Assembly (NCBI GenBank): GCA_036172245.1
Contig: JAYWIR010000062.1
Location: forward strand, 1 to 64,000
Direction of reading: 5' to 3'
Source of the DNA: Raillietiella orientalis
Taxonomy: Eukaryota
DNA: 64,000 bases
The position numbers and the translations under genes are program-made. The notes under the pieces were generated by a model. That model made no database searches, was not told the DNA's origin, and saw nothing but the letters and a program-made list of their open reading frames with translations. Of this stretch, positions 4,106 to 57,117 are shown piece by piece. Position 1 is the stretch's first letter. Each line of letters opens with the position of its first letter.

Positions 4106-4109
4106 CATT

Positions 4110-17600: not shown

Positions 17601-20516
17601 GTGCAAGGGGAACTCCTCGCAAAACTCGCGGACAGAAGCCTTTAAAAGGTCCCAATCAGCGAGATTGCGAAGGGTGACGCCTCTCAAGAATTCGCGAAGG
17701 TGTTCCTTCGCAACTGAGAGTCGCGTCCAGTCCCCAGGCAGACGCCACGCCCTGGATGGGGGGCCCTTGTCGCGCGGGCACACCTCGAATATCAACCGAA
17801 AATGGTCAGACAGCTCCGACGCAACTTTCCTCCGTTTGCCGAGCCGAGAACACAGGTCGACATCCAGGAAGACGTGGTCGATGCTCCTGACCATTTCCGA
17901 AAGATCCCCTAACAAGTTGCGCGTGCGCATGACGGCGCACAACTCGTTAGCCATCCGTTCCTGTGCGTGTGGCTCACCTGATAGCAGGCGGAGATTAAAG
18001 TCTTCCGCTATCAGGTGAGCCACGCGCACGTTCGCTTCCACCAGCCAGTCGCGCTTCAGGGTTTACAGGACCGCCTCACGTTCCTGGTACCTGGTAGGAC
18101 CGCTCGGAGTGTACACATTTGTTTCGACGAGGTCGATCGTGTCGGACCACTTCAGAATCAGCTGGCCGACACTTCCTGCTTCGTCGAAGCTCACACCCTT
18201 CACGGCTGCGTCGACTGCCGGCTTCATAAAAAACGCGACGCCGCAGGTGTATCGCGTGCGCATTGCCACATTAGACGCCCCCCTGCGATCTTTTCGATCT
18301 CCTGGGCGTTCTCCGCGGTGATCACGTGGATCTCCTGCAGGAGCGCCAGGTCGAAGTCACGCAGGGTGGCGGCCGTGTCCCGTCTGTTGCCGTCGTCGCG
18401 CAGCCCGTAAACGTTCCAGCAGGCCACGCGTAATGGACGGCGACACGCGAGCCCAGATGTTACTCCTGGGAAAGTGACAATGGGGCGCCGCCAACTGGTC
18501 GGGCGGGACGGAGGGAGGAATGGGATCACTGTTCACCGGTACTCCCTCCTCAATGGGGGCTGATTCCTCGGCGGACCGCAACGTTGAAGGAGGCGGGTTT
18601 CACGCACGTGCTCCCCCTCTTCCATGGGGGCCGATTCGTCGACTGCGCTGGACGGCAGGGGGGAGCAGTTGTCAGCTGTCTGCTCCCTCTCCTCCTTGGC
18701 TATCTCCTGAACAGGTTCCACCGTTGGGAGGGGGCGGCAATCACTCACCTTATCCCCCTCCTCCATGGGGGTCGCCAGCTGCTCGGTAGCGGAGGGTGGG
18801 AAAATCCCTCCCTCCGTTCCCACGCTGCTGGCTTCCCCCTCGGTTGCCGGTGCGTCCCCCTCCTTCTTTGTCGGGATGCGCCTCTTGGGATTTTTGGACT
18901 TCCGTCCAGTCTTCTTCGGAGGCGCCTCCCCGGAAGACGCACTTCCGGCATCCGGTTCGTGGTCACCTGTCGGAGGGGCCTTGCTCGCGGCCGGCCTTCG
19001 CAAGGCCTTTCGCGCTCCGTTCTCACGCTCCGCGAGTTGGGCCGCGAGCTCTTCCGCCGCCTGCTGGAAGGCGGCGTCCTCGATTACGGCGAGCGCGTCG
19101 CTCGGTTCCCCCTCTGTTTGCACAGAGGGTTCGCCTTTCTCGATCGCGGCTTCGGCGTCAACGAGGCGGGAGATATCTCCCCCGGTGGAGGTCTCGGGGA
19201 TCTCCACGCGCTCCAAAGCGACCGAACATTCGCGGAGCAAAGCGCGGCGTTGCCTTCTATTTAGAGAAGTTGTCGCAAGTTGCGCTGTCGGTTCTTCGGT
19301 TTTTCGGCTTTTTTTACTTTTCGGGTTCGCTGTCCGCCAGTCCTCGTTGTCACCAGCGTCGTCGGGAGTTTTCTCGACCGCCGTTTGCTGGGAGCTTTCG
19401 GACTCTGGCTTTTTGCTTGGCCTTTCCTCGGCTTCAGTGGTCTTGCTTGTTTTCTCCAAGCGTTTTCTCTTACCTTTTTTCAAGGCACAGGGCGCTGGAG
19501 GTTCCCGCTTTGAGCACACTTTTCGGAGGTGGCCCTTCTCCTCGCAGTGAAAACACTGGATGTGAGGGCACCGTTTTTTCAGGTGCCCTGTTGCATCACA
19601 GTGCCTACAGTACTTGGGCTTGCCCACGTACCAGACGTCGACGACCTCGTTGCCGACGTCGAGTTTGTGGGGCAGCCCACCGTTTTCATGGACGGTCACA
19701 CGCGCTGCAGTCATGCCACTGAACAGTCTTCCGTAAGTTTGGAAGAAGTTGGGCTTGGTCCAGAGCGCGTGCACCGTACCATGTTTCTGCAACTCTTCCT
19801 GCACGCCAGCTTTTGTCATGCGCAGAGTTACACCGGTAAGGTGGGCAACAATGGAGCGGTCCTCCGTTACAGGGAAGACCTTCCGGCCTTCAAGAGTGAT
19901 GGGAGTGTTCAGCAGGCGTTGATTCAGACTTGCATTTTCGCAAGTCAGCTCCACCCGCTGGCCCTTACTCATCACGGAGAGACCTTCCAGATCTTCCTCA
20001 TTGACCTCCAACCGCTGTAACTCTCTTTCAAAGTAACCAGCGGTGTTCCCCACAAACAGGTTTCCTACCTTGTAAATCAAGGACGGCTTGTATCCTTGTT
20101 CCAGGTAGGCCCGTTGTTCTGCTAAGGCAGCAGGAGATGGCGCTGCAGCCACGGAGCTTCAGGACTTCGTGAATGGAGCAGGTGGATCCAAGGACGCGGT
20201 TGCTCCCTTTTTCAAGGACGCGGTTGCGCCCTTTTGCACGAGGACGGTTGCTCCCTTTTTCAAGGTGGCGGTAGCCCTCGTTTCCATAGAGGCGGTTGCC
20301 CCCTTTTTCAAGGAAGTGGTTGCCCTCTCCTCCGTGGGGGCGGTTGCCCCCACCTCAATAGGTTGGGGAGAGGAACAATCCTCTCCCCCGCCGACTTCCA
20401 TCGCGGTGTCCTCAGGCATTTCTGCCATTGGACACCGCAGATGCTCCACACACAAACACTAACGAAAAGGAACGCTTTACAAAAGGCGCAGAGAAGCGCG
20501 GAAAAAAAACGTCCGC
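14670..20516 (-). mobile_element. Full-length subfamily A Tx1-like element (5.85 kb), frameshifted
   Basis: Perfect 15-bp TSD acgccaagttgctgg (14655-14669 and 20517-20531). ORF1 ~20428-18460, ORF2 with EN, RT (AYADDL) and zinc finger, 3' AATAAA-hairpin. Confidence 0.95.
20189..20350 (-). repeat. 24-bp tandem repeat (~6 degenerate units) in A ORF1 N-terminus
   Basis: Unit approximately aaggacgcggttgctccctttttc, encoding KKGATASL-like octapeptides. Confidence 0.8.
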
Positions 20517-22853
20517 ACGCCAAGTTGCTGGCGAAATTGTGGGCTGAACGCCTGGGGCGGTTAGCGGAAAGCTTCATTAGCCCGGAGCAGACATATGCTG
20601 TTCCCGGGCGGAGCATGGATACTAACCTGTTCCTCGCCTGCACCTTTTCCCGGCTCCAACAGGAAAGGGTCAGGATGGGCAACCTGACTTCCGGAATGTC
20701 CACCGCTAGGAAACGGGATGGTTGGGGAGGGGAGGGAGCCCTCGCAGTCGCAGTCGATTTGCATAAAGCATTCGACTGTGTCGACCAGAGGCTCCTCCTG
20801 GAGCTCCTGGAACGCTTGGGCTTCCCTGTCTCTTTGCTGACCTACCTGCGATCCTGCTGGCGCCACGCGCTCATCCAGATTCTTTTTCAGTGGACACACC
20901 GTGCACGGCGTACCGGTGCGACGCGGCATACGGCAGGGAGACAGCCTGAGTCCCTTGCTCTTCAGTACCTACTTGCAGTTTGTACTGAGAGCGTACACGG
21001 AAACTCTAGCGCACCTGCCGCGCGACTATCCCGGTACGCCCGCGGTGTCAGCATATGCGGACGACCTACTGCTGCTGCTCCCTATGTCCACCCCGGCATC
21101 GGCGGTCGAGGAGTTCTTCGACCTGCTAAGTCGGGGAATCGGGCTTGAGGTGAACAGCGCGAAGTCGTCCGTCATGCCAATCGGTGCGGCGTGGGCAGGG
21201 CAGCCGGACTGGGTCCGTTTAAGGATCCCCACGCTACGGTACTTCAAGTACCTCGGTGTACCGATGGGTGATTATCTCCCTTCGGATGCGTGGTCCAGCT
21301 GCCTTCAAAAGGTAGAGACGGCGATCTACCCGTTCCAAGGCCGCAGGTGTTTCCTGCCGGAACGGGCCGCGGTGTGGAACGCATTCGCGGCGCCCCTCCT
21401 CCGTTCCCTGCTTTTTGTTTGTCCTCCCACCACAGAGACTAAAAAGCGGACGAAGGACCTCCTAAGGATTGCCCTGTGGGGTAATGGGAGGGCCCGAGTC
21501 CGGCTGGATGACTTGAGCGCTCTGCATCGGGAAGGCGGTCTCGGCTTCCTGACGCTAGAGCGGCTGGAACCCCAGCTTTAGTTTCGGTTAGTCGCCCTAG
21601 TGGCGAAATATTGGAGTAGCAGTTGGTGCGAGCCCGCACGTCTCCTCGTCGAGCAGGCCACAGGCAAGGTGGGACTGTCATCCTTTCTAGCGCTCCGTCG
21701 GCGCCGCCAAGTCGGTCACTGTGGGTTGCAGCTACGGAGAGTGGCTGACCTGATGAGGAAGAACGCAGGATGGCTCTGCTGTCGCCCCGTTAACGGACCT
21801 GCATAGCTGCAGGAAACGGTTCAGACGTGGGCGAGGAGCAACCAGCAACGCATCCAAGAAGGGCAGAGACAATTCTTCGCTCGTAATGACCGCCTGACGC
21901 TCCGGGAGGTCCTTGAGAACCCCCAAAAACGAGCGTGGGCAAGAAAAACTCCCCTCGCTGCAATGCTGTTTCCGTTCGCGGAACATTTAAACGGCAACAC
22001 TGCTGCGAAATGGGATGTTTTCGTCAAAATCTCCGGTACAGAGAAAAAGATCGGGGAATGTAAAATGGGAATTCTCTGCGATACCGCGGCCCGGACTACC
22101 ACCCCTATTGGACTTTTGCGCTGGGACGAGCTGCTAAATGTTCCGCGGGAACACTTCAAGTGGCCTTCGTTGCTGATGAACACCTCCACCCTCCCCTTGA
22201 AATAACAGGAGTCGGCGCTATTGTTGCTGCATTGGGGACTCCCCTGCAACGCCTGCCGGCACCATTGGACCTGGGGAGCGGTAAGCTCTAATTGTGCGAG
22301 GTGTGAAGAACGGGACTCCCTCACTCACCTCCTTTTTGATTGTGTGGCACTTCGGCCCCTTTGGAACCGTTTTGCCGCGGCAATCGGTAACCCTTGTGGC
22401 AACCCCAGAGACGCAATCAGATCCCTCTTCGTTTGCGAAGCCCTTCGGCCCTCGGCCGCGTTAGCAGCTCTGTGCTGCTTTCGCGGGATCGTCGCTGCAT
22501 GGAGCAAAGCAACGGGAGGACCTCGCGATAAGGGTGCCGTCCAGTGCGCAGCCGAATTTATGCGGACGGCGACAGGATGGAACCCTGTGGATTCAAACAT
22601 CCAAAAACAGCTTGCCGTCATGCTGCAAAGGATGTAACGGCCACACAGCAGACTGTGATCCCTTCCCGTGCCCCCCAGATCTTGATTTTATATATTTCTT
22701 TTCTTTGTTTTATTTTTTGTTTTGTCCTTGGCCCCTCTGCTGTCGTGGTGGACCGTGCCGCAATACGAACCGGTGACCAGGCAAGCTTAATTGTGTATAC
22801 CAGTGCGTGGTCGGACCACCTGGTCAGCCACCAACGTTTGTTTTATTCCAAAG

Positions 22854-23864: not shown

Positions 23865-25962
23865 TTTTCACCCGGATATGCCGGGGCATTTATTTAAAAT
23901 AAACAGAAGCGCAATACATTATCGAGTGGAGAACCCGAGGGTTCACCACACCAAAACAGCTTGCTGGCTGCCGGCACTATGCCGGCGAGGTCTTTCCAAT
24001 GCGCGGGGGTTGGGAAAGAAAAAAACAAAAGCAAACAAACAGTTGAAATGTGGGAGGGAACAAATGTTTCAGGGGTGGGAGGGCAGGGAAGGGATCACTG
24101 TGCGCGGGGATAGGTCCTCTGGATCCTATTCAGGATCCGGACAAGCTGAGTCCTCTCTGCGCCTAAGTGGCGCTACTTGCAAACAGCTCGCACGAATAGG
24201 CGAGTGAAACGTAAGGCGTTGCCAGTTGGCTGACGTCTCCTCCTGGTGGCGCTACAAGCCGCCACGATCCCTCGAATGCAGCAGAGGACTGCTACAGAAG
24301 CTGGTGGGGACAAGGCGTCACGACAGAAGAGGCGCCTGAGAACGTCCTTAGGGCCACATCCGCGCAAATCCAGGATCGCCGCAACGCGATCCCATAAAGG
24401 GCGGATGGCACCACACTCCAGAAGAAGGTAAGAAAAGGTCTCTTTTTCCCCGCATGGTCGCACTGGGGATCCACAGCTTCCCGGGTTGAGTGATACAGGC
24501 GTGCTTTACAGGTAAGCCCCAATGTATTACAAGCAACGCCACCTCCTGCCATTTAAAGGGGAGGGATCCACTGTTCCAGGACGCAGGGGGCCACTTCATA
24601 TCCTCCGGAGATACTCCGAGTAGCTCGCCCCAGCGTCGAATTCCGTTGGGCGGGACACTCGGCGTCGCAGCGTCCGCTAGCTGCCGAGATGTCCACGCCT
24701 TTATCGGTTGTGTCCTGCCGCCAATGGTGCAGGACACGGTCCTTTCCCCAGCTTCCTACTGTCCCTGGCGTTTATTAGGAAGGGCAGCTCTGGGGCAAGG
24801 GGGGTCATCAGGGCCTACATAAGTTTATCGTGGGACTGCACGATCTCCTGCAGTTTCCAGCGGGCGTGCCTTTTTAGGCAAGTGTTTCTTGTGCCCGCCG
24901 GAACGTGGATCTTTATCCAGGTGGACACTGACTCGTCCAGCCATGCAGAGTAGTTCCCTGGGAGGCAGGAGATTCAGGCGTTCTCCCGTACCACAACGCA
25001 CATGCGACGCAGGAGAAAGCCGTTTTGTGCTTCTCTGCAATCGCGCTCCAGCAGAAACGACAACAGTCCATCGAATCCGCAGGCTCGTTGGGCCAGGAGG
25101 CGTGCTGGAACGCACTAAGGCGTGTCCTACAATTCTGCCGCGAGGCCGAGAGTCCTAAAGCGGAGTTGTAATTCCATGCGCTCCAGCGTAAGTACGCCAA
25201 GTCCTCCGTCCTTACGTGGAGCGCACAAGTCTTTGAGCCTCACACGGAACCTCCCTTTGCCCCAAAGGGCTGTCCTCAGGAGGACCGTTGCCCTTTTTCG
25301 GATAAAATAGGGGGCGAGGCACACAAAAAGTAGGGGGCGAAGAAGATGAGCCGCAAACGTGTTCCACACCGCGGCTTGTTCCTGCAAGTAGAACTTGCTT
25401 TCTTGGAACGGAACGATCGCCAACGCTACCTTTTGGAGTCCATCGGACCAGACTTCTGCTGCGCAGAAGTTACTCAACGGAACACCAAGGTACTTGAAGC
25501 ACCTGCCCGTGGGGATCCCCAAGCGGATCCAGTCCGACCGTCCATCCCACCCCGAGCCAACATACACCATAGACGACTTCGCCCTGTTCACCTCCAGGCC
25601 AGTCCCACGGCGCAACAACTCGAAGAATTCCTCGAGCGCACTCGCCAGGGTGGACCCGGAAAGCAGCAGCAGAAGATCGTCTGCATAGGCCGACACAGCA
25701 GGTGTGCCGGCACACGAGCTCGGCAGCGTTGCCAGAGTTACCCTGTATGCCCTTAGCATTAACTCGAAGTAGATGCTGAAGAGCAAGGGGCTCAGGCTGT
25801 CACCCTACCGGATGCCGCGGCGCACGGGCACGCCGTACACGTGCCGGCCGCTGAAACAAATATTAATAGACGCGTTGCGACAGCAAGAGCGCAGGTGAGA
25901 CTGGAGCACGGCCAGGAAACTCATGCGTTCCAGGTGCTCCAGAAGGAGATCCTGGTCGACAC

Positions 25963-25996
25963 AGTCGAATGCCTTGCGTGCTCCAGGGTGGACGTG
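25963..25996 (+). promoter_or_regulatory. Putative Inr plus DPE core promoter (example; equivalents at 48916-48949, 1564-1531 on minus, 57097-57130)
   Basis: CA(+1)GTC with GGACGTG starting exactly 27 nt downstream. Confidence 0.55.
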
Positions 25997-28945
25997 TTTT
26001 CTCGGTGCTCCTCGTGCCAGGAAGTATCCCCCAGTGCAAGCGTCGTGTGGTTCGGTGGTCGATCAGGCAGCGATGCCTAACGCGACCACCAGGGATGGCC
26101 AGGGGGCAGCGGCATCGCCGCCCCCAGAGGCGATATAGAGCCAGGGGGCGGCGGCAACGTCGCCCCCAGAGGAGAAAGAGGTGGGGGCATCCGCTCGCAC
26201 AGAATCGGTCCCCGCTGCAGCGCGGGCGTGGAGCGCCGTTGTGTCGGCGCCATCGCCTGCAGCCGCGGCGGAATTGTCGGCCTATGTAGAGGAGGGGTAC
26301 AACCCCTCATTGTTCTACAAGGTAGGCAATTTATATTCTTTAAAGAGCACGCGCGCCTTCTCGAAGGGCATGCGCGCTCTCGATGTGAAAGAGGAGGAGC
26401 TCAGAGCTATGACCATCCGCAGCGGGGGTCAGTACGTTAAGGTCATCTGCAAACAAGCAGAGCTGGCCCAACGACTGCTTAAAACCCCCGTGGTGATGGG
26501 GACGCGCAGGCTCCTCCCTATTACGACGGACCGCAGCATGGTGGTCCACCTGTTAGGTGTTACCCCGCGGATGCGCAAGGAACAGGTTCGCGCTGCGTTG
26601 GAGGAATATGGAACGGTCCACGCGCAGTGGACGAAAGTTAGTCCTTTCGAGGACTACACGGAGCAGCAACACGGCCTCACTGCTGCGCGCGTGACCGTTC
26701 GGGAGGGCTGCACTCTTCCCCTCAAACTGGTGGTCGAAGGCGGAACCGTCGACCTCTGGTATGTGGGGAAACCGAAATACTGTGGCTTCTGCAATACGTC
26801 GGGCCACCTCAAAAAGAGGTGTCCCAATGTGCAGTGTTAAGTATGCGGCACAATGGGCCACACGAGCGAGGTGTGCCCAAAAGCAGCAGTGCGGGTGGTT
26901 TCCGAGAGAAACCTTAAAAAACGCGCTCGGCTTCTGCAGAAAAGGCTGGCGGCGAAAGCTGCCGCGAAGGCTGTGCCACCCGCGCCCAAGACCCAGGCCG
27001 CACCCGAAACCCCGACGACCAACGCCGAAAAAGTTGAGGGAGCCGGCCAGGAGACTGGGTGGCAAGTGGCAACGGCCAAAAAATCAAAGAAGGAGAGGAG
27101 GATGGAAAAGAAAATCGCCTACCAACAGAAGAAGAAAGAGCAGGGTAGCGCGATAATTAAAGAGTGCAGCGTCGTTGTCGAACGCGTTCTCGATGTTGCC
27201 GAACGCTGTCGGAAAGAACTCGCCGCTACCGACGACCTCCCCTCTGTTGACACTGTCAACAGCGAGGGCAGCGAGCCGGCGGCGGCGTCCGTCATCGACA
27301 CCACCATCGATGACGTAGCCTTCGCGCGAGCCGCGGAGGAGCTGGCAGCTTTGTTGCAGCCAGAACCCCCCAAGGCTGGCAAGAAGGCCGTAAGGCGTCC
27401 GGCCTCCCCACAGGAGTTTCCCACTTCCGACACCGAGGAGAAGGCGGGAAGCGCAGCCTCCGTTTCCACGGCACCGCGCAAGAAGCCTGGACGTAAGACC
27501 ACAAAGCCAAGGAAGCTCGTCTCCCCCGTCGAATGGGAAGAGATGGCTTCCGCAAGCGAGGGTGCCATGAGCGTGGGAAACTCTCGAGACCCGTCGCCCG
27601 AGAGAATCCCACGCTCGGACACGGAGGGGATGGAGGGGGTGGAGGCCGAACAGGTGCCTCAGGTGCCTCAGAAGGCCGAAACCCCCATGGACATCCCGCC
27701 CGCCTCGCAAGAGGAGAGCTCCCCAACACCTCAATCTTCCCAGCAGTAATGCCGGGAATGTCCACCCGCCGTCGTCTGCGCATCGCCGTTTGCAACGTGA
27801 ACGGCATGACAGACGCCGGCAGGAGACGAGACATGGCCGCCCTTCTCGAGTCCTACGACCTTGCGCTGCTGCAGGAGATCCACGTGATCTCTGCAGAACC
27901 AGCGCAAGAGATCGCACGGATCTCCGGAGGGCGGCTATGGTACAGGTGTGGGAGAGCGAAAAGTTGCAGTGTCGTCTACCTGCTTCGGCCAGCCATCGAG
28001 GCCGCGGCTCGGGGCGTACGGTTCGACAATCACGGTCGTGTCGGCCAGCTGACTCTCAGGAGGACCGACTCGATCCTTCTGATCGTCACGACCGTGTACG
28101 CACCGAGCGGCAAGGACCTGATGAACAGGAGGGCGAGGAAAGTGTTTTTCCTTGCCCTCCGGCGAGACTGGCTGACCGAAGCATGCGTGCGGAATGCCCA
28201 TCTGGTTGCAGGCGATTTCAACGTTCGCCTGAAACCAGATGAGCAGAATGCCGAGCGTGACCTGGTCAACGAGGCGTGCATGGCGGTGCACACCTGTAAT
28301 TTGTTGGCCAGTGCACCGGCGATGGAAGACAGCATTGACCACGTGTTTCTTGACAAGCACCTGTGCCCTCGCGTGGGCAGGCGCGGCAAGTTACCGTGCG
28401 AGCTGTCCGACCATCGCCCGCTAGTCGTCTAGATCCATCCGCGCGACAGGGGCCCCACCTCGTCAGCGTGGCGTTTCCCAGGGGACTGGCTCAAGCTCCC
28501 GGACGCGGCGGAACATCTCCGCACGTTCATACGGAGCTTCAGGCTGCGGACATTCCAGAATTGAGACCGCTTCAAGCGGTCGGTCCAGGAGTTCTGCGAC
28601 CAGTTCCCTCTGAACCGCCTACCTACGGGTTTTGGGACCTGGGTCCGTAACGAACGAGCCTATTTGCAGGCCCGTCGTAACGCCAGAACCCCCGACATCC
28701 GCAGGCTGGCGGAATACAAAGCGGGAGCCGAGAGGCAAGCCTGGTAGTCCGGATCGGCCACCTTACTAGAAGATCAGGGCCAGGAGCACTCGGCACCTGC
28801 CCAAATCCGCGGCCTGCTGCGGAGTTACTACTCCTCCCTGTATGCCAGGGCACCTCCGGAGAGGAACGTCTCACAACTCCTGCTTCTGGAAGGCGCTCCA
28901 GCGATCGGGGAGGAGCAGAGAAAGACCATCGACGAGCCTTTCACG

Positions 28946-30940
28946 ATGGACGAGATCCTTTCCGCCATCGGAAAGCTCAAGAGGCGAAAGGCTCCAGGGG
29001 AGGACGGCCTGCCCGCGGAAGTTTATCAAACTTTCGCGGCTGAGCTTACTTCCCTGGTACAGCAACTCACCTTGCTGATACGCGAAACAGGTGACGTTCC
29101 CGCCTCGTTTCGTTTGGCAAAGGTGCGGCTCCTACCTAAGGGAGGAGATTTGAGGAGCATGAACAACTGGCGTCCCATCAGAATAGTGAATGCGGACGCC
29201 AAGTTGATAGCCAAGATGTACGCAGAACGTCTGGGACGAATTGCCAACATCTTCATCAGCCCGGAACAGACATATGCTGTTCCCGGGCGAAGCATGGAGG
29301 CGAACCTGTTCCACGCTTCCACCTGGCTAGAGCTCCAACATGAAAGGAGCTGGGTGCGCAGCCGGAATTCCGGTGCGTGCGCCGGCAGGGGGTTGGATGG
29401 TCGGGTGGGAAAGGGAGCCCTTGCGGTCGCAATCGACTTGCGAAAAGCATTCGATTGCGTCAACCAGAATCTCCTTCTGCAGCTTCTGGAACGCTTGGGC
29501 TTCCCGGCCTCATTAGTGGCCTATCTGCGCTCCTGCTGGCGTGACGCGCTCATCAATGTTACTTTCAGCAGGCAGACCTTGCACGGCGTGCCGGTGCGGC
29601 GTGGGATCCGGCAGGGAGACAGCCTCAGCCCCTTGCTCTTCAGTACCTACTTTGAGTTGGTACTGAGAGCGTACAGGGGAACTCTGGCGCACCTGCCGCA
29701 CGACTGTGCCGGTACGCAGGCCGTTTCAGCGTACGCGGACGACCTTCAGCTGCTGCTCCCTATATCCACCCCGGCTGCGGCGGTCGAGGAGTTCTTCGAC
29801 CTGCTGCATCGGGGAACCGGACTTACGGTGAACAGGACGAAGTCGTCCGTGATGCCAGTTGGTGCGGCGTGGGCAGGGCAGCAGGACTGGGTCCGTTTGG
29901 GGATCCTCACGGTGAGGTACTTCAAGTACCTTGGTGTGCCGTTGGGGGACTACTCCCCTGCGGAAGCGTGGTCCGGCTGCCTTCAAAAAGTAGAGACGGC
30001 GATCGGCCCGTTCCGAGGCGGCAGGTTTTTCCTGCCTGAACGGGCCGCGGTTTGGAACACGTTCGCGGCTCCTCTCCTCCGCCCCCTGCTTTTTGTTTGC
30101 TTCCCCACAGAGAGGATTAAAAAGCGGACAAAGGACCTCCTCCGTATCGCCCTTTGGGGCAACGGGAGGGCCCGAGTCCGCTTAAAGGACTTGTGCGCTC
30201 CTCGTCGGGATGGTGGTCTGGGCCTCCTGACGCTGGAGCGGCTGGAGCTTCAGCTCCAGTTCCGCTTGTCGGCACTCGTTCCAGAGTTGTGGTGCACCTG
30301 TTGGTGCGTCCCTGCACGTCTCCTTCTCCAGCAAGCCACCGGCAAGACGGGACTGACGTCGTTTCTTGCACTCCGTCGCCGCGTCAACCGATGCGGACTC
30401 CAGCTACGGAGGGTGGCTGCGCTGTATCGGAAAAACCCAGGATTGCTCACCTGTCGCCCGTTTAACGGTAGTGCCTGGTTGCAGGAAACCGTTCGAACGT
30501 GGGGACAGTTCGGCATGCAACGCTCCCAACAGGAACGAAGGTTCCTGTTTGGGGGTTACAGAAGTTGCACGCTCCGCGAGATCCTGGAGGATCCAAAGAA
30601 GAGAGCGTGGGCAGGAAGAACCTCTCTCGCTGCTGCGCTGCCGTCTCTGATGGAAGATCTGGACAGCGATGTTGCGGCGAAGTGGGTGGTTACAGTAACA
30701 ATCTCCGGAAAGGAGAAGAAGAAAGGAGAGTGGAAGACGGGACAGTTAACAGACGCTGCCACCCCGAGTACGCCTCCCAATGGACTTCTGCGCTGGGGCG
30801 CGCTGCTCGATGTTCCCATTGAACATCTGAAGTGGCCCCCGGTGCTCATGAACACTTTCTCCCTCCCCTTAAAATGGCAGGAGTCGGCTCTCCTGTTGCA
30901 GCACTGGGGACTCCGCTGCAACGCCCGCCGACACCACTGA
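28946..30940 (+). pseudogene. Longest open RT segment of K ORF2 (664 aa)
   Basis: KAPGEDGLP, WRPI, DLRKAFD, GIRQGDSLSP, YADD, KYLG motifs. Bounded by premature stops. Confidence 0.9.
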
Positions 30941-32374
30941 ACCTGGGGAGCGGTAGACCCCAATTGCGTCAGGTGTGGGGAACGGGAGTCCCTCTTCCAC
31001 TTGCTAGTGGATTGTGTTGCCCTTCGGCCCCTTTGGTTTCGCTTTGCCGCGGCCATCGGAATCCCCTGCGGCAACCCCAGGGAGGCACTGAAAGCCGTAT
31101 TCGTTGCCGACGCCCTTCGGCCAGCGCCCTCGTTAGCAGCTTTGTGCTGCCTACGCGGGATCGTCACCGCTTGGAGCAAGGCTACGTGAGGACAACGCTA
31201 CCAGGGTGCCATCCAACCAGCCTCCCAGTTTCTGATGAGGGCGTCCCGATGGCTCCACCTGGATCCAGGAATACAGAAGGAGCTTTCCGGCATCCTGCAA
31301 AGAATGCAACGGCCCCACCAGCAACTGTGATCCCTTCCCTTACCCTACCAACTTTTCTTTTTCTTTTTTGTTTTGTTTTTGGTTTTTTCCCCTTCCCCCT
31401 TCTGCCGTGGTGGACCGTACCGTTCTGCGAACCGGTGACCCGGCAGGCTGTGTTTCTTCTTGCGTGGCTGGAGCAATGGTTCAGCCACCGCACGTCTTTG
31501 TAAAAGTTTATTTTACAATAAACGCCCTGGCGAAATCCGGGTGAAAATCAAATGCTTTGTGCGAATCGACCGCGGAGGCAAAGGCTCCCGCCGAGTCCAT
31601 CCCACCCTCTGCTTGATCTTCTTGGTCAGTGAGGAGTGCGAGGCTCCCTTGACTATCCTGTGCAACGCGTTGTCGCAACTGCCACCATGAGCTGGCGAGG
31701 AGCAGGTTGGCCTCCATGGTTCGTCCGGGAACAGCATAGGTCTGCTCGGGACTCACCACGGAAGCGGCCACCCGCCTCAAACGCTCAGCCCACAACTTGG
31801 CATACAACTTTGCGTCCGCATTCACTACTGTGATGGGACGCCAGTTGCCAATGTTGCGTAAGTCTCCTGACTTCGGCAGGAGACGTACTTTAGCTGACCG
31901 GGACGAGGCGTGAACTTCGCCGTGTTCGCGGATCAGCGTACATAGTCTGAGCATCAGGGAGGCCAGCTCTGGCACGAAGTGTTTGTAAAACTCCGCGGGC
32001 AGGCCGTCCTCTCCTGGCGCCTTCCTCATCTTTAGCTTGCTGATGGCGCAGATGATCTCCGTCAGAGTAAACGGTTCCGCAAACCTGAAACGATCCTCCA
32101 CCATGAGCGCGGGAGCACCATCCGGCAACAGGCGCTGCACGAAATGGCGCTCAGGTGTTAGGGGCCCGTACAAGGAGGAATAGAACTTCCGCACGATGCA
32201 GCTTACCTGAGCTGGGCTGGAGCGTTCTTGGCCCTGATGGTCCAGCAAACAGGCTGAGCCTGACTGCCAGGCCTGCCTCTCCGCCTCAGCTTTGAATTCT
32301 GCCAGGCGACGGACGTCGGGACGCCTGGAATAACGGCGGGCCTGAAGGTTTGCCCGCTAGTTCCTGACTCCCCT

Positions 32375-35300
32375 GCCGAATCCCTTGGCGAGTGGACGTG
32401 TGTTTCCTTCGCTCCCGAGTGAGTCGACAGGAAGCGGTTTTTCCTTGTGTTGTTTGGTGTGGAACATCGTTGGTGTCCGTTGGCAGCGATACCTGAAGAC
32501 ACCACGATGGAGGTAGGTGTGCAGGAGGCTTGCCCACCCCACAGCCTACAGAATCAGGGGCGTCCGCCCGGGAATCGATCTCGCCGCCCAAGGCGAGGAG
32601 CTGGAGCGCCATGGTGGCCGCGCCGAGCGCGGAAACCGTGGCCGAGATAGCGGCTTCCCGGGCAGCTGGCTACAAGCCCAGCTTGGTGTACCAGGTAGAC
32701 CCCTTATTTGATGGAAAAACAGCACGCGCGTTTTCGAAAGCGCTGCAAAACGCCGGAGTAAGAGAACAAGATCTTGGCGGTTTGTCCGTTCTCAGCGGAG
32801 GTCAGCGAGTCGAGGTGGTGTGCAAGGAGATCACCTTGGCTCAGACTCTGATCACCAACCCGCTGAACGTCGACGGCCGCAAGATCTTGCTAGTGACGAT
32901 GGACCGCTCCGTGGTGCTCCATCTCACTGGAATAACGAGCCGTATGACTCGCTCTGCGGTAGCACAAGAACTTCGGAAGTTCGGCGAGGTGCACGCGCTG
33001 TGGCCTAAGCCGTGTGTGCCCAAAACGCCCCACCCCGGTTCCTCCTGCCGCGAAAAAGGCGCAGGGGAAACGCGCACTAAAGGTCGCAAGACCTAAGGCG
33101 GACGCTGGCCGGCTGAAGCTGCCAAATCCTCAACCTCCAAAAGAAAAGACGGAGGATAAACCTTCCCAAGAGGCGGAAGGTGAAGAGAACTGGCAACTTG
33201 TAGCAGCCAGAGAAAAGAGGAAAGCTCCTTTAAAGGAGAAGAAAGAGAAGCCGGCCGGTAAGGCAAAAAAACCCGGGCCGCGTTCGAAAACCGTACGCGA
33301 GTGCACGGTGGCACTGGAACGTATCGTCGTTCCGGAAGATGCCACCCGGGGCGACGAGCCTCCCCTAGCCGTTTCCGTTGCGCCCGAAGTTCGCGACGGC
33401 GAACCCTCTGTGCAAAGAGAGGGTGAGCCGCGCGACGCGCCGGTAGAAACCGAGGACGCCGCGTTCGCAAAGGCGGCGGAGGAGCTCGCGGCCACGCTGG
33501 CGGAGCGTGAGAACCCCTCACGCAAGGCCGTGCGAAGGCCGGCTCCCGCGAAAAAGGCCCCAAAAGGTGAGTCAGACCTGGGGGCCGGAAGCACATCCTC
33601 CTCCTCTTAGGCACCCCCCAGGAAGTCGGGACGCAAGTCCCAGAAACCCAGGAGGCGCCTCCCCTCCACCAGCGAGGAGGAGAAGCAGGAAGCTAGCGGT
33701 AACGTGGGAATCCCGGAGGGGGAACTCCCACGCTCGGAAGCCGTCGAGCCGTCCACCCCCATGGAGGAGGGTGAGCAGGGGGGCGAATTCCTCCCTGCAG
33801 TCGCCGAGCCTGAACAGCGCGCCATCATGGAGGAGGGCCAACAGGTAGGCGCGACCCCACCTGAGGGTGACCCGCTCGACGCGCTGTTACCCATGGAGGA
33901 GGGGGACCAGATGCACGCAGCGCCTGACCCTCCTCCTTCACATAGCGTACCGCACCAACAGGTGGCGGACGCCGCATCGCCATCTTTTCAGGAATAACAC
34001 CTGGCCTCGCCAGTCGCCGTCGGATTCGCGCCGCCTCTTGGAACGACAACGGGCTGCGTCACGACGGTAACAGGCGAGATACGACCGACACCCTGCGTGA
34101 GCTCGACCTGGCCCTGCTGCAGGAGATCCACATGATCACCGCAGCAGACGCCCAGGAGATCGAGACGATCGCGAGGGGTCGGTTGTATTGGCGGTGCGGC
34201 CTCCGCAACACCTGCTGGGTCGCGTTCTTCGTGAAGCCGGCCATCGACGCTGCCGTGAAGGGCGTGCGCTTCGATGACGACGGTCGGGTCGGTCAGCAGA
34301 TTCTCAGCTGGTCCGACTCGATCGAATTGATCGTCACGAATGTGTACGCCCCCAGCGGTAAACAGGGATACAGCGACCGTACCAGGCTGCTGGATTCCCT
34401 GAAGCGCGACTTGCTGGGGGACACAAACATGCGGAAGGCTCACCTGATAGCGGGAGATTTCAATCTCCGACTGCTAACAGGTGAGCTAGAAACACAAGAG
34501 AACGCGATGAACAAGTTGTGCGCCGCCATGCGTGCGCGCAACTTGTTCGCGGGTGAGAGTGGAATGGTCCGCAGCATCGACCACGTCTTCCTCGGCGCTG
34601 ACCTGTGTTCACGGGTCGGCAAACGGGGGACGGTTGCGACCTGCCTTGCTACGGCGCTGCCCTTCCTGAGAAGGGCACTTCACTGCAGCCGGACGCCAAG
34701 GTGGCAAGTCTCCTGCTTCATCGAGGGACTCGAGAAGTTGACAGCGGCTGGACAACAGGAGAACTGTCCGACGCCACGACCCCGAGCGTCCAGCCGCGAG
34801 GATTATTAAGATGGGGCGAGCTGCTCGCCATCCCCAGGGATGAGCTGAAGTGGCCCCCGGTGATGACGGAATTCAGGATCCTGCCCCTCAAGTGGCAAGA
34901 GTCGGCGTTGCTTTTGCTGCACTGGGGTCTACTCTGCAACGCGCGCCCCTTCCACTGGACTAGGGGAGCTGTGGATCCTGCGTGTGCCACGTGCGGGGAG
35001 CAGGAGTCGCTTCCCCACCTTATTGCGGATTGTGCTGCCCTCCGACTCCTTTCGGAACGGTTCGGGACGACCCTCGGGCTCCTTACGGGCAGCAATCCCA
35101 GAGACGTTCTTCGGCCCCTCTTCGTGAAGGACGCACTGCACCCAGCCGCAGCCATCGCAGCCTTGTGCTGCGTCCGTGGCATCGTGGCGGCATGGAGCGA
35201 CGCCAACAACGAAGGAGTGGGTCCACAGGTGAGGGAAGTCATCCCGTATGCCCAACGCTTCTTGCGAAGAGCTGCCGGATGGTCCCAACTGGGGAATATG

Positions 35301-35562
35301 CAGACTGACCTCGAGGGCTTCGTTCGACTGATGGGCCCTCCCCACAGCGACCACTGATCCCTTCCCTGCCCTCCATCTTATTTTTGTTTGTTTCTTTTTA
35401 TTTTTCTTTTTGTCTTATCCCCATCCCCCTTCGCTGTCGGGGAGTGCCACGCCGGGCTGCGTCCCGGTGTCCCGACAGGTCGCGTGTTTACGGCCGTGGT
35501 GGGGCTTCGTACCACGCATGTAGAGTTTACAAATAAACGCCCCGAGCGTACCCGGGAGACAA
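32375..35562 (+). mobile_element. Subfamily G element with both termini, internally deleted (ORF1 knuckles and RT lost), at the GFG site
   Basis: Deletions near 33011 and near 34638. 5' GGACGTG at 32394, AATAAA at 35532 plus hairpin. Both flanks are antisense GFG codons. Confidence 0.9.
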
Positions 35563-38196
35563 CGCCGAAGCCCGGCAGAAGACGTTCCAGGGGAAACTGG
35601 TCGCAAAACTCGCGGACTGAGCACTTCATTTCGTCCCAGTCCGCGAGCGTCTCAAGATGGAATCCTCGCAGGAAGGCGCGTAGATGTTACGCCGCTCCTG
35701 CGAGGCGCAACCAGTCCCCTGGCAGGCGCCACGTTTTCAGGGGAGGGCCCTTGTCGCGTGGATGTATCTCGAGCACGAGCCGTGGATGGTCGGACAGCTG
35801 TGCCGGGAGCGTTCCTCGATTTCCCACCCGCGTGCATAGGTGGTTGTCGAGGAACATGTGGTCGATGTTTTGATCTCTCCCGGCATCACCGGCCAACAAC
35901 TTGAGCGCATTCATGGCTGCGCACAACTCGTTGACCAGTCGTGCTCGACTGCTAAGCGCACCTGCCAGCAGGCGGAGATTGAAGTCGCCCGCGATGAGGT
36001 GCTCCCGCCGTACGCTTGCTTCAGCCAACCAGTCTCGCCGCAGGGATGAAAGCAGTGCGTTACTCGGCCCTGTGGCTGCTCACCGGAGCGTACAGGTTCG
36101 TCACCACGAAATCGATCGAGTCGGATCATTAGAACACAAGCTGTCCAACTCGACGATCCTCGTCGAACCTGACGCTGCGCAGTGCGTTGTCGACGGCTGG
36201 CTTTAGCATGAAGGCCACTCCGCAGGAGCGGTCGTTTCCGTTCCTCCACAGTAGCCGCCCTCCTGCGATGCTTTCGATTTCCTGGATATCTCCTGCTCTG
36301 AGAACGTGCGTCTCTTGCAGGAGCACCAGGTCGAAGTGTCGCAGTATGGCGGCTACGTCTCGCCTCTTACCGTCGTCGCGCAACCCGTTGACGTTCCAAC
36401 AGGTGATGCGCAAGCGGCGGCAGGAGGCGAGCCCACGCATTGGTGTATTTATGGTGGGGTGGAGGCGGCGTCCTGCCTTTCGGGAGGCGGCTCGTTGGCG
36501 GCCGTGACGACGGTCGGCTGCTCACACGGGAGCACGTCGTCTCCAGCGACTTCCATTGGGCTGGCTTCCGTGACACGGACGGGAGAAGGGTCGCGTGGCG
36601 CGACGCACATTGCCTCCTCCTCAGTGCCCGAAGACATGGGCTCCTCTACTTGGGAGGAGGCGACACGTCTCAGGCATCAGGCCTTCTTGCCAGCCTTCCT
36701 CTTCGGCACGGCTGTGGAAGTAGAGCAACCGGCTTCAGCGTCCGACCCGGAAGATTCCGGGCCCTTCGCCGTCGCCGGTCGTCTCAAGGCCTTCTTTTCG
36801 GCCTTGGCAGGCTGCCGGAATATGGCTGCCAGCTCTTCCGCGGACTGCGCGAAAGTCGCTTCTGTGATACGCGCCGCCTCATCGCTTTCCGCACCGACGA
36901 TCGGCGCAGGCGCGACGGGGACGGCTTCATAGACCGCCGCGCAGACGTCCTTCGCTGGCAATGCCGGAGCGGCATTCTCTTCAGCTGATGGTGACATCAC
37001 TGCGGGCACGATCGGCTCCAATACGACGGTATCAATCGCGTTCACCGTTACTTTCTTCACGGCTCTTGCGATTTTCACTGAACAAGCGCGGACTGCCGGC
37101 TTCTGCTCCTTCGAAGCCGCCTTGTTAATTCTTTTTACCTCCTTGACGGGGGCCTTCTTCTTCTTCACCACCTTCTGCCAACCTTCCTCGTTCTCGGCGC
37201 TTTCTCCAGCTGGTTGTTCGCTGGAGGATGGCTGAGCAGCGGGTTGGTCGGCAGGGCGGGATCCTGCCAGTTGTTGGCTTCGGTCCTTTTCCTTCGGCGT
37301 CTCTTCCTTCCTCGCGCCTGACGGAACGGACCTTTTTCGGTTTAGGCACATCCGCCTGATGTGCCCCTTCTCCCCACAGCCCAAGCACACGATGTTGAGG
37401 CATTTCTTTTTTAAATGTTCGGACACCTGGCAAAAGCCGCAGTAAACGGGTTTCCCCACATACCACAGGTCGATCTACTCCTCCCCGACCTGCAGTCTGT
37501 GGGGTAGCCCACCCTCGGCACGGACTCTCACGCGCGCAGCGACGTACCCACTAAAAGCCCTGGTGTAACCCAGGACATTGGGTTTCGCCCACAACGCGTT
37601 GACGGTTCCGTATTGCTCTAAAGATTCGCGAACGGCGGTCTTTGCCATTCGCACTGTGATGCCGGTGAGGTGGACAACGATGGAGTTGTCCGCCGTGAAC
37701 GGGTAGATTCTTCGACCGTTCGCGGTCACCGGCAGGCGCAGCAGCTGCTGAGCCATCCCTGCAGACTTGCAGTTCAGCTCAACCAGCTGCCCGCCAATTC
37801 GCACTGAAAGCCCGAGGACTTCGTCCTCCGGGACTTTCAATTTCTTAAATTCGTCCGCGAACGACCGCAATACCGCGGGGGAGTACAAGCCACCTACCTT
37901 GTACAGGAGGGCCGGGTTGTATCCGTCGGCCATGTACGCCCGCTGTTCCACTGCGGGGGGCGGCGTAGGCGCCGCCACCACCGCGCTCCAAGCCCTCGCC
38001 GGGGCGGGGGACGAATCCGGGGGGGTGTTGGCCCCAACATCCATGGGTTGAGGGGACGAGGCTCGCTGGCCCCCCTCCGCCGTGTTGGCGGTGTCCTCGG
38101 ACATTGCTGCCCAGGAACAACCGCTCCACAAAATACCGCAAACACTCGCAAAAAAAGATTTTCGGCAGCACCAAAAAAACACGTCCTCTCACTGCA

Positions 38197-38727
38197 GGTC
38201 CGGGGTGAGCACTCGCCGTTCCGCGGCGAGTGTGTCACGCCTCAAGGCTTCAGCCCTGCGGGCGCTCGCTCCCGCGCGAATAACGCGTCGTTCAGCGGCG
38301 CTATCGGACTCCTTTGCAGAGTCTGATGCTCGCACGATCGAGTGCGCTTGCATCCGTCCGATTGCACCGGAATGCACTTCTCGGCGGTCACAGAAGCGGA
38401 CTTGCACGCGTTGAAGGCGCTGGCTTTTTCCTGGAAAGAGGCACAAGCCGCGCGTGTCTTCGTGTTCGCGCGACTGCTTTTTCCTTTGAAAGAGCTCAGG
38501 GATGGATGTTGCGAAGCTTTTTTCGGAGATTTTTCTTTCCTCCTCTCCACAACCTTCCGTTCGCCTTCGCGATTTTCGGAGGCTTCCGCGACAGTAGTTG
38601 CGGAAACCTCCGGGATTTTCGCGGCGTTCTCTGGGAGCGTTGCTTTCGCCACGCCTTTAAAAGGCGGCAACGGAGTCAACTTCTTGACATCCGGGAGATT
38701 GCTCCTCTCCTGCCGAGTCGGCGACGA
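38197..38727 (-). mobile_element. Outer element O, part 2: ORF1 disordered tail
   Basis: Lies between two TSD copies linking it to 44316 onward and to 23864. LNDALFARE resembles IDDVAFARA of other ORF1 tails. Confidence 0.7.
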
Positions 38728-48915: not shown

Positions 48916-50266
48916 AGTCAAACGCTTTGTGCGCTCTAGGGCGGACGTGTTATCTCGGTGCTCCTCGTGCCAGGAAGTCTCCCCCAGTGCAAGCGTCGTG
49001 TGGTTCGGTGGTCGATCAGGCAGCGATGCCTGAGGCGACCACCAGCGATGGCCAGGGGGCGGCGGCAACGTCGCTCCCAGAGGCGATGGAGGTGAGGACA
49101 TCCGCCCCCACAGAATCGGTCCCCGCTGCAGCACGGGCGTGGAGCGCCGTTGTGTCGGCGCCATCGCCTGCAGCCGCTGCGGAATTGTCGGCTTATGTAG
49201 AGGAGGGGTACAACCCCTGATTGTTCTACAAGGTAGGCAATTTATATTCTTTAAAGAGCACGCGCGCCTTCTCGAAGGGCGTGCGCGCTCTCGATGTGAA
49301 AGAGGAGGAGCTCAGAGCTATGACCATCCGCAGCGGGGGTCAGTACGTTGAGGTCATCTGCAAACAAGCAGAGCTGGCCCAACGACTGCTTAAAACCCCC
49401 GTGGTGATGGGGACGCGCAGGCTCCTCCCTATTACGGCGGACCGCAGCATGGAGGTCCACCTGTTAGGTGTTACCGCGCGCATGCGCAAGGAACAGGTTC
49501 GCGCTGCGTTGGAGGAATACGGAACGGTCCACGCGCAGTGGACGAAAGTTTGTCGTTTCGAGGACTACACGGGGCTGCAACACGGCCTCACTGCTGCGCG
49601 CGTGACCGTTCGGAAGGGCTGCACTCTTCCCCTCAAACTGGTGGTCGAAGGCGAAACCGTCGACCTCTGGTATGTGGGGAAGCAGAAATACTGTGGCTTC
49701 TGCAATACGTCGGGCCACCTCAAAAAGAGGTGTCCCAACGTGCAGTGCCAAGTATGCGAAACCATGGGACACACGAGGGAGGTGTGCCCTAAAGCAGCAG
49801 TGCGGGTGGTTTCCAAAAACGCGCTCGGCTTCTGCAGAAAAGGCTGGCGGCGAAAGCTGCCGCGAAGGCTGTGCCACCCGCGCCCAAGAACCAGGCCGCA
49901 CCCGAGACCCCGGCGACCAACGCAGAAAAAGTTGAGGGAGCCGGCCTGGAGACTGGATGGCAAGTGGCAACGGCCAAAAAATCAAAGAAGGAGAGGAGGA
50001 TGGAAAAGAAAATCGCCTACCAACAGAAGAAGAAAGAGCAGGGTAGCGCGATAATTAAAGAGTGCAGCGTCGTTGTCGAACGCGTTCTCGATGTTGCCGA
50101 ACGCTGCCGGAAAGAACTCGCCGCTACCGACGACCTCCCCTCTGTTGACACTGTCAACAGCGAGGGGAGCGAGCCGGCGGCGGCGTCCGTCATCGACACC
50201 ACCATCGATGACGTAGCCTTCGCGCGAGCCGCGGAGGAGCTGGCAGCCTCGTTGCAGCCAGAACCC
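48916..50266 (+). mobile_element. Subfamily K 5' part (ORF1 truncated)
   Basis: Near-identical to 25963-27368. GGACGTG at 48943. Confidence 0.9.
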
Positions 50267-50366
50267 TCCGCGGCCAGTTGGAGGACGTGTTTTTCCTTCA
50301 CTCCTCAAAGGGTAGTAGGAAAGCGCTTTCTTGTGTGTGGTGTTTAGTGTACATCGTCGGTGTCCA

Positions 50367-52115: not shown

Positions 52116-52588
52116 CACCTGGGCTCGCCAGTCGCCGTCGGATTCGCGCGGCCTGTTGGAATGTCAACGGGCTGCGCGACGACGGTAACAGGCGAGATAC
52201 AGCCGACACCCTGCGGGAGTTCGACCTGACCCTGTTGCAGGAGATCCACGTGATCACCGCGGCAGACGTCCAGGAGATCGAGACGATCGCGGGGGGTCGG
52301 CTGTACTGGCAGTGCGGCATCCGCAACACCTGCGGGGTCGCGTTCTTCGTGAAGCCGGCCATCGACGCTGCCGTGAAGGGCGTGCGCTTCGATGACCACG
52401 GTCGGGTCGGTCAGCTGACTCTCGGCTGGTCCGACTCGATCGATCTGATCGTCACGAATGTGTACGCCCCAACCGGTCAAAAGGGATACAGCAACCGTAC
52501 CAGGCTGCTGGAATCCCTGAAGCGCGACTGGCTGGCGAACACGAGCGTGCGGAAGGCTCACCTGATAGCGGGAGATTTCAGTCTCCGC

Positions 52589-53674
52589 TATCAGGACGAG
52601 GACGAGTACTGCAGGACGAGGTGAAGTTTTCTACCCTGGCTGCCACGCCTCTTGCCGCAGCGCTGTCTGCCCTCAGGGCAAGAAACGACAGTTACCAACC
52701 GGCGAGGTGGGAGGTTTCCTGCACGATAGCGGGAAGAACCAAACTCCTTGGCACCTGGAAGACAAGTGAGTTGGCGGACGCCGCCACTCCTCGTGTTACT
52801 GCAAAGGGACTCCTCCGGTGGGCAGAAGAACTTGCTGTCACCCCCGAAGAACTTGTAGTCCCTCCACAGTGTATGGACAGTTCGCTGCTCCCCCTTGCTT
52901 GGAAATAAGCCGTGCTGCTTTTCGTTCACTGGGGTTTTCAGTGCAACGAGCGTTGGCATCGTGACTCCGGGGGACTTGCGTCTGCGAACTGCGTTCGGTG
53001 CGGATCGACGGAGTCGATTCCGCACCTACTTCTGGACTGCGGTGTCCTACAAGGACTGTGGCGTAGGCTGGCAACAGCACTATTGCATCCCGTGGACACC
53101 GCAAGAGACTTGCTGCGACGATTCTTCACGCCGAGCGGGCTTTCACTAAGCGCAAGGATTGCAACCATCGGTTGCATACGCGCGATAGTTTCCGTCCGCC
53201 AGGCGTTGGTAATCAACGGACAGCACCAAGAGGTAATCAGCAAAGCATCCTTCTACATGGGAGCATCCGCTAGATGGCCTCATTTGACAGAGGAGACAAA
53301 GAGGAATCTCGCCGCAATACACCGCCGGTTTACACACCCTCATCAGCGGCCAACCCGGTGATCATTGCCCTACCCTCCATAAACTAAATTTGTATTTTCT
53401 TTTTACACCCGCGTCCCCATAGGCTCCGGAACATTTTAGGTGCTCATCGTATAAATCCCCGTGAGTACGGAGCCTAACCAAAAACCCGTTACCCTTCCCT
53501 CCAGTTTTTGATTTTTGTTTGTTTCCCCTCATTCCCCCCACGCTGCGAGCGGTTTGTTTACCAGGCCTGCGTGCCGGTAATTTTTCTATGTTCTCTGTCG
53601 TTCTGTTGGTTAAGGACATTGTCCCTGACCAGTTTATTATTATTAATAAACGCCCCAGCGTGACCGGGTGATAA
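52589..53674 (+). mobile_element. 5'-truncated Tx1-like copy inserted in sense orientation into the EN GDFNLR motif
   Basis: 14-bp TSD atttcaRtctccgc (52575-88 and 53675-88). CVRCG..HLLLDC. AATAAA at 53645 plus hairpin. Confidence 0.9.
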
Positions 53675-57021: not shown

Positions 57022-57117
57022 CCCCAAATCCCCGGGGCAGGAGGTGCAAGGGGAACTCCTCGCAAAACTCGCGGACCGAGGCCTTAAAAAGGTCCCAATC
57101 AGCGAGATTGCGGAGCG
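57022..57117 (-). mobile_element. 96-bp subfamily A remnant between the DW and GFG sites
   Basis: TLRNLADWDLFKASVREFCEEFPLHLLPRGFG. Near-identical to 17580-17675. Confidence 0.85.

Follow-up and report, generated by a model that had tools for sequence, protein, structure and literature searches.

A probable short element-borne terminus, rather than a long target-derived leader, at the 5' junctions of nested site-specific LINEs in Raillietiella orientalis

A 64,000-nucleotide stretch of DNA from Raillietiella orientalis (assembly GCA_036172245.1, contig JAYWIR010000062.1, positions 1 to 64,000 of the forward strand; the window) consists almost entirely of a nest of related retrotransposons without long terminal repeats (non-LTR retrotransposons, or long interspersed elements, LINEs) with a G+C content of 58-61%. 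By self-comparison of the window the families are 65-93% alike. The copies are old and broken by stops and frameshifts, and rearrangements in the nest are frequent. The 5' junctions of these elements, above all those of the G and K families, are the subject of this report. They point, with a probability of roughly 0.7, to site-specific LINE integration in which a 4-nt terminus of the element's own, and not a 13-15-nt leader, is used at the 5' junction. This figure is a joint one for the whole explanation, including the reading of the remaining differences between left and right duplication copies as ordinary decay of old copies.

K1 is a full-length K-family LINE (25973..31547, forward strand) that extends from CTTG-CGTGCTCCAGGGT-GGACGTGT to GGGTGAAAA. 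It has a first open reading frame (ORF1) and a second (ORF2) that matches PF03372 (E 1e-10, 42 bits against a cut-off of 24.5) and PF00078 (E 6e-23), with the apurinic/apyrimidinic-type endonuclease (APE) N-terminal to the reverse transcriptase (RT). The two domains are also present in elements G2, G3, Z and Q. Hits to zf-CCHC in ORF1 score 18.6-21.1 bits, straddling the 20.8-bit cut-off, and the translated ORF1 of K1 contains a C-x2-C-x4-H-x4-C string. Target duplications of 12-14 nt flank K1, G2, Y, W and a 1087-bp insert in G3, and 5' truncation is seen in X and in the 1087-bp insert. By the order of APE and RT, the duplications, the lack of terminal repeats and the 5' truncation, the elements are APE-type non-LTR retrotransposons.

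The solved structures nearest to the RT are 8c8j, an RNA-directed DNA polymerase (E 7e-37), and the ORF2p of human L1 (E 2e-36). Poly(A) is absent at the element 3' ends, which carry GGGTGAAAA or GGCAAC instead. A search of a 5.8-billion-protein collection returned one close relative, P0001, with 69% identity; the remainder were at about 30% or below, the next at 29%. A protein-guided metagenome search gave 23 loci, all of them distant partial matches (20-46% identity), which were not used. G, K, Y, W and V are related APE-type LINE families, and new ones, the nearest database protein being 69% identical.

Breakpoints in the self-comparison recur at identical K1 coordinates, and in alignments they fall at three targets, all of them antisense to ORF2. 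Site A, in the K-A-F-D codons, holds the 5' junctions of K1, K2 and K3 in three hosts (1550-1564, 25963-25976, 48916-48929). Site B, in the N-A-D-A-K-L codons, holds Y in host X and Y' in host X2 (14655-14668, 20517-20530, 46974-46987). Site C, in the G-F-G codons of the linker between endonuclease (EN) and RT, holds the 3' junctions of Y'', G2 and G3 (10470, 35563, 57022) and the 5' junctions of G1 (11887/8) and G2 (32383/4); site-C stretches lie at 10457-10469, 11879-11891, 32375-32387, 35564-35576 and 57023-57035. A fourth insertion, this one in sense, interrupts the G-D-F-N codons of G3. Independent insertions fall at the same nucleotide in hosts that are 59-90% alike across pairs. Judged from these junction sequences, the elements are sequence-specific LINEs that home into one another, mostly antisense in sister ORF2, and the nest is built up in this way. 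A literature search found no described LINEs that target the ORF2 or RT genes of other LINEs, which is not proof that there are none in print.

G2 is an internally deleted G-family LINE (32384..35563, forward strand). It begins CTTG-GCGAGT-GGACGTGT and ends AATAAACGCCC...GGGAGACAAC, with the deletion at 34638/34644. Its host W, which is also the host of K1, lies on the reverse strand (23865..38198) and is itself inserted in element Z. The left duplication core of G2, GCCGAATCC (32375..32383, forward), is the antisense of the G-F-G codons, and the right core, GCCGAAGCC (35564..35572, forward), has one mismatch to it, T/G, after which the host reads CGGCAGAAG. G1, the 5' part of a second G-family element (11888..13140, forward strand), begins CCTG-TCGAGT-GGACGTGT. 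Its left core, again GCCGAATCC (11879..11887, forward), lies in the internally deleted host Y'' (10470..11891, reverse strand), which is of the G3/Y type. The deletions of G2 (34638/34644) and Y'' (11735-11745) remove most of the RT, corresponding to about 53857-56095 and 54236-55761 in G3 coordinates. Both copies keep complete ends and may therefore be non-autonomous derivatives.

The two G junctions were considered as copies of a single event, and this was rejected. Over the 134 nt upstream of the junctions the flank of G1 is 63% identical to that of G2, 81% to that of G3 and 77% to that of Y, as the original prediction had held in saying that the two hosts differ, while the G1 and G2 elements differ by only 7-8% (blastn identity 89-92%). 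With flanks so much less alike than the elements, G1 and G2 are independent insertions at one site. A seeming oddity of G1, a canonical 5' junction paired with a 3' junction that would call for a leader, was rejected as well. Similarity between G1 and G2 ends at about 13140 and the 5'-truncated X, which is V/K-like, begins at about 13150; the apparent 3' junction of G1, 79 nt away in the much more divergent Z, is the 3' end of X. The host fragment of G1 is continuous with Y'' through a simple internal deletion. G1 is a normal site-C insertion minus its 3' part, cut at about 13140 by X, and a long leader is unnecessary.

The original prediction was drawn from differences between left and right flanks, and its counts are reproduced. 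The left flanks of the two G insertions, GCCGAATCCCTTG (32375-87) and GCCGAATCCCCTG (11879-91), agree at 12/13 positions, while the left flank of G2 agrees with its own right flank, GCCGAAGCCCGGC (35564-76), at 9/13, and the left (25963-76) and right (31546-59) flanks of K1 differ at three positions. What does not hold is the placement of the duplication boundaries: the 5' CYTG of the elements and the 3' A-run of K1, both counted as duplicated host sequence, are element-borne.

The 3' boundary was fixed as follows. The K-type 3' end is GGGTGAAAA in X, W and K1. A contig from one sequencing run, X1, is 98% identical to the window over 22884-23245 (7 differences) and has an unoccupied site; the 38 letters before 22884 are homologous to the host and not to element X. 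The switch to host-like letters at 22884 places the boundary between element and host directly after the A-run. With K-type elements ending in the A-run, the duplication of K1 starts at TC, at 31548, two bases later than had been set, and the first K mismatch (AG against AA) is one of element against host. Three sequencing runs of one study were available; X1 gave 536 related contigs, 32 of them at least 99% alike, and the runs X2 and X3 almost none. The X1 contigs, mostly 300-450 nt among those listed, were too short and too few for a census of junctions, and the single record at 22884 was used.

Most 3' ends in the nest consist of AATAAACGCCC, a short palindrome, and then GGGTGAAAA or a GGGTGGCAAC-type end. 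The 11-mer AATAAACGCCC has 11 matches in the window against 0.8 expected; the 3' end of G3 is without this motif. The shared 3' ends lie at 10470-10501, 14669-14698, 22854-22883, 23865-23894, 31517-31547, 35532-35563, 46988-47017 and 53645-53675, and are made up of a short GC palindrome, CCGG...CCGGG, followed by GGGTG(A)4 or GGCAAC. The shared 3' end is probably the structure recognized by the RT.

At the other end of the elements, the nine full-length 5' ends have in common GGACGTGT(K)TTT, for which there are 15 matches against 6.2 expected, with a family-specific segment before it. Directly before this segment, at eight of the nine ends and at five different host positions, stands YTG, as part of the tetranucleotides CTTG (K1, K3, G2, Y), TTTG (K2), CCTG (G1, W) and GTTG (G3). 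The right host copy at the place of YTG reads CGGC for G2 (where CTTG occupies 32384..32387, forward) and ACCC for W, and the closest relatives of the G1 host read GGAG and ACGG where G1 has CCTG. G3, although fused to the middle of K2 ORF1, nonetheless starts TTGG. The chance of YTG at the three places in G2, W and G1 is about (1/32)^3. Since YTG is found at unrelated host positions, even where the right host copy differs, it belongs to the element. The sequences support a 5' terminus of 3-4 nt that replaces host bases in G2 (CTTG over CGGC), and in K1 the element's C probably stands over the host's T. The idea that the insert overwrites host sequence is thereby kept for the last 3-4 nt, which are the element's conserved 5' terminus, and given up for a target copy of about 15 nt. 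A search for the 5'-junction pattern GGACGTGTKWTYYCKKYRCTC...AGGAA gave no matches in metagenome_contigs, viral_contigs or genome_contigs. Untemplated additions by the RT at the end of its template could also leave 3-4 nt at this place, and the cited passages of PMC2718515 report them at junctions of R2 and R1. In those passages they are of any sequence, whereas here YTG stands at eight of nine ends, and this origin is highly unlikely.

With both boundaries corrected, the duplications are as follows. The left core of K1, TCGAATGC (25965..25972, forward), is the antisense of the RT motif K-A-F-D in host W, and the right copy is TCAAATGC followed by TTTG (31548..31559, forward); the core, TC[G/A]AATGC, agrees at 7/8 positions, with the element's CTTG over the host's TTTG. 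The G2 core, GCCGAA[T/G]CC, agrees at 8/9. For W the left copy is CTCACCCCGGA followed by CCTG (38199-38209 and 38195-38198) and the right copy CTGACCCCGGA followed by ACCC (23864-23854, read downwards), and the core CT[C/G]ACCCCGGA agrees at 10/11, with CCTG over ACCC. The 5'-truncated insert in the EN domain of G3 (52589..53675, forward) has the duplication TTTCA[G/A]TCTCCGC (52576-88 and 53676-88), 12/13 alike and with no junction bases. The full-length Y (14669..20524, reverse strand), which lies at site B of X and has the 5' terminus CTTGGCGTGC-GGACG, has a perfect duplication, CAGCAACTTGGCGT (14655-14668 and 20517-20530); it agrees at 14/14 positions, or at 6/6 without the overlap, as its last 8 nt fit the element terminus too.

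The corrected cores hold 4 mismatches in 47 positions, 0-1 per duplication. Sibling copies diverge by 4.3-8.8% (K), 7-8% (G1/G2) and 7.4% (Y/Y'), and at 7.5% the probability of at least 4 mismatches in 47 is 0.47. With the earlier boundaries K1 and G2 together have 7 mismatches in 27 positions (26%); the shift of the boundaries removes this excess. These numbers bear on a simpler explanation as well, one that the original prediction had named as a caveat, that the duplications are truly 13-14 nt long and host-derived throughout and that their copies differ through decay, gene conversion or recombination. The age and brokenness of the copies and the frequent rearrangements in the nest are in its favor, but the 26% for K1 and G2 contrasts with 4-9% between siblings, three of the four G2 mismatches are clustered at the junction, and the explanation gives no account of why YTG recurs at unrelated host positions, so that we regard it as very improbable.

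Five mismatches can be read in codons, three at third and two at second positions (P for at least 3 of 5 at third, 0.21). The core mismatch of K1, a CpG transition, and the C/T difference assigned to its element are both at third positions, as is the core mismatch of G2. In the 5'-truncated insert the mismatch (AAT/AGT) is at a second position, with the left copy deviant, and in W it is again at a second position. The C/A difference at the W junction, also at a second position, was assigned to the element's CCTG and stands outside the count of five. The original prediction had described the three K mismatches as synonymous third positions; the four readable K and G mismatches are all of this kind, and W and the truncated insert add two at second positions. 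In W the left copy reads TCA (38205-38207) and the right copy a TGA stop (23861-23863), so that of the two copies of this host codon one carries a nonsense change.

The origin of the left cores can be followed through the hosts. K1, K2 and K3 differ by 4-9% over their first 340-1390 nt, and their left cores, TCGAATGC, TCAAACGC and TCGACCGC, are 6/8 alike to one another. The left flank of K2, TCAAACGC followed by TTTG (48918..48929, forward), lies in host Y', which is 92.6% identical over 1.5 kb to Y, and the uninterrupted site in Y is the same TCAAACGC, 8/8. The left flank of K3, TCGACCGC followed by CTTG (1551..1562, reverse strand), is in a third host. The left core of G1 equals the uninterrupted site of G3 at 9/9, and G3 is the family to which the G1 flank belongs. 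The left core of G2 is also 9/9 to G3, so the 9-mer GCCGAATCC does not discriminate. The 12/13 match between the two G flanks consists of a 9/9 conserved target core and a 3/4 shared element terminus, and is not above expectation for a conserved coding site chosen by an endonuclease.

The cores can now be set against the explanation first proposed, in which the RNA carries about 13-15 nt of its donor's target, the end of the cDNA anneals there and the whole left copy is donor-derived. Several observations agree with it: the left 13-mers of G1 and G2 are alike at 12/13 despite flanks of 63% identity, the left core of G2 has T against a G in its own right copy, the K and G mismatches lie at synonymous third positions, and leaders have precedents in R2 and melanogaster-type R1 (PMC3774820 and PMC2718515, in the passages cited). 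However, the three K siblings have three left cores, that of K2 being the core of the host's sibling, and the core and flank of G1 are both of the G3 type. Left copies that cluster by insert had been set beforehand as the test, and they do not. The non-canonical 5' junctions of G3 (in K2 ORF1), V (95 nt beyond site C) and W (in Z) have no GCCGAATCC- or TCGAATGC-like sequence upstream, only YTG or nothing. No excess of mismatches is left once CYTG and the A-run are reassigned, and the mismatch in the left copy of the 5'-truncated insert is not leader-derived, as such an insert cannot carry the 5' leader of an RNA. Rfam gave no matches at the gathering score in the window; no ribozyme family reached E<=5 in 25900-26400 or 32300-32800, the 5' regions of K1 and G2, although a novel ribozyme could escape such a search; and the consensus fold of nine 5' untranslated regions (UTRs) has conserved hairpins but nothing ribozyme-like. 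Donor-derived left copies of this length are thus largely refuted by the host tracking, and we hold them to be quite improbable. A further role proposed for such a leader, that of a primitive guide in site choice, finds no support either: the 3' junctions at site C, which the first nick sets, occur in three hosts whose duplications end in CGGC, CCGG and CCTT.

Integration through a terminus of the element's own would proceed as follows. Target-primed reverse transcription would take place at the few conserved sites A, B and C in sister ORF2. The RNA would start with C-Y-T-G, followed by 6-13 family-specific nt and GGACGTGT, and the cDNA end would be joined, probably by microhomology, to the cleaved top strand within its 12-14-nt overhang. 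The left copy would then keep the first 8-11 nt of the host and end in the CYTG of the element. Where the host reads CTT(N) or CTTGGCGT, as at sites A and B, the overlap would serve as microhomology and the duplication would look long and clean; where it reads otherwise, as at site C in W, its last bases would look overwritten.

The resemblance of the terminus to its targets raises another possibility, that CTTGGCGTGC is a heritable relic of a target. An ancestor at site B would have been transcribed from within its upstream duplication copy and so have acquired a copy of the antisense of N-A-D-A-K-L, CTTGGCGTCC, which would still prime the second strand at site B (8 nt) and at site A (3 nt). 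The Y terminus CTTGGCGTGC and the site-B host CTTGGCGTCC agree at 9/10 in register, G2 at site C still begins CTTGGCG and K1 begins CTTG-CGTGC, site A ends in CTT(N), and one site-C host (Y3) reads CCTTGG at the end of its duplication. But matches to this 10-mer with at most one mismatch are common enough in the window (11 against 6.9 expected), the first 8 nt of Y can be assigned to neither host nor element, G1 (CCTGTCG), W (CCTGCAG) and V (none) deviate, and there is a single 5' junction at site B. We consider this origin unlikely. An equally tentative extension is that all families of the nest share the ancestral terminus CTTGGCGTGC as a short target-derived tag that primes the second strand, with a relic of 4-7 nt in the K-A-F-D and G-F-G lineages.

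Several points weigh against the preferred explanation, the short terminus of the element with host-derived cores. V alone among the nine 5' ends is without YTG, and in the others the tetranucleotide may start with C, T or G. All four readable mismatches of K and G, including the disputed first K base, are synonymous. The left core of G2 has the T typical of its family and the right core a unique G, and the left core of K1 is 8/8 to K/U/X-type hosts and its right core 7/8; each fits a donor-derived left copy and decay alike. In the 5'-truncated insert it is the left copy that deviates. Between the terminus CTTG(GCGTGC) and the ends of sites A and B the match is closer than chance would suggest, and some target mimicry may be real. 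Finally, the nine 5' ends come from one 64-kb window and the evidence is that of DNA sequence.

Three 5' junctions lie at unrelated places. G3, a full-length G/Y-type element (50277..57022, forward strand), begins TTGGAG-GGACG and adjoins K2 ORF1 at 50276/50277; its 3' end is at site C and it carries the 1087-bp insert. V (57118..59288, forward strand) has the 5' end TCGAGC-GGACGTGT, without YTG and without a site-like leader; its junction at 57117/57118 stands 95 nt from site C and abuts a host fragment of that length (57023-57117). X enters G1 at about 13140-13150. The remainder of the host expected at these three junctions is missing, which suggests frequent target deletion during 5' attachment, or later ectopic recombination.

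Other features of the window were noted. The 5' UTRs of all families (25973-26150 and eight others) align and have common hairpins, for example GGCAGCGATGCC, with compensatory changes in 6 of 22 predicted pairs; these may act as an internal promoter or bind a protein. The last 45 or so nt of Y' before K2 (48885-48916 compared with 16720-16760) look, by eye, less Y-like than 7.4% divergence predicts, and several of the differences from Y near K2 are, again by eye, G>A and C>T changes that lie close together (AGGAGCTCC against AAAAGCTTT). The region 38200-45600 holds a more divergent LINE with a G+C content of 0.54, with CCHC, APE and RT in 39639-42618 (forward strand) and no nucleotide similarity to the other families; an antisense CCHC open reading frame lies at 44257-45501. 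The region 3626-7200 has a G+C content of 43-46%, is without long open reading frames and does not resemble the elements; no other part of the window may be non-LINE DNA.

Of the steps of target-primed reverse transcription in LINEs, the attachment of the 5' end is understood least. A leader that copies the target and also guides site choice would, if true, be a new principle. The junctions described here fit the known picture, in which the first nick is rigid and the 5' end is joined flexibly by way of a few bases of the element terminus, and the source of the anomaly was the setting of the boundaries. Of some interest are the new families themselves, their unusual targets, which are conserved coding motifs in sister LINEs, and the resemblance of their terminus to one such site. 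If the tag reading were true, the terminus would correspond to the leader of R2 and melanogaster-type R1 in minimal form and without a ribozyme, in LINEs that home into each other's RT genes.

Tx1L of Xenopus is a site-specific, L1-group, APE-type LINE that inserts in another transposon, a DNA transposon. It is like the present elements in having a specific target inside another mobile element, which here is the ORF2 of related LINEs and not a DNA transposon. The transcripts of R2 and melanogaster-type R1 carry upstream 28S sequence, and its annealing to the cut target is proposed to give uniform 5' junctions, according to the cited passages of PMC3774820 and PMC2718515; the original prediction drew on this idea. 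The leaders in those passages are 6-36 nt long, whereas here at most 4 (perhaps 7-10) nt are found and the cores follow the host; the R2 leader is made by a ribozyme like that of hepatitis delta virus, which has no match here. R1 differs from the present elements in its target, the 28S ribosomal DNA as against conserved coding motifs of sister LINEs, mostly antisense; here the 3' ends have nothing A-rich apart from (A)4 or GGCAAC, and human L1 ORF2p is among the closest solved relatives. To ask if R1 transcripts carry target sequence, Stage and Eickbush (2009; PMC2718515) used non-28S insertions, the same test as the one applied above to G3, V and W, and in the passages cited, the ancestral-type R1 of arthropods carries none at insertions outside its normal site. 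This type of R1, as described there, is like the present elements in being APE-type and sequence-specific, with a duplication of about 14 bp and a rigid first nick, with variation only where the duplication ends at the 5' junction, and with few if any upstream target bases on the transcript.

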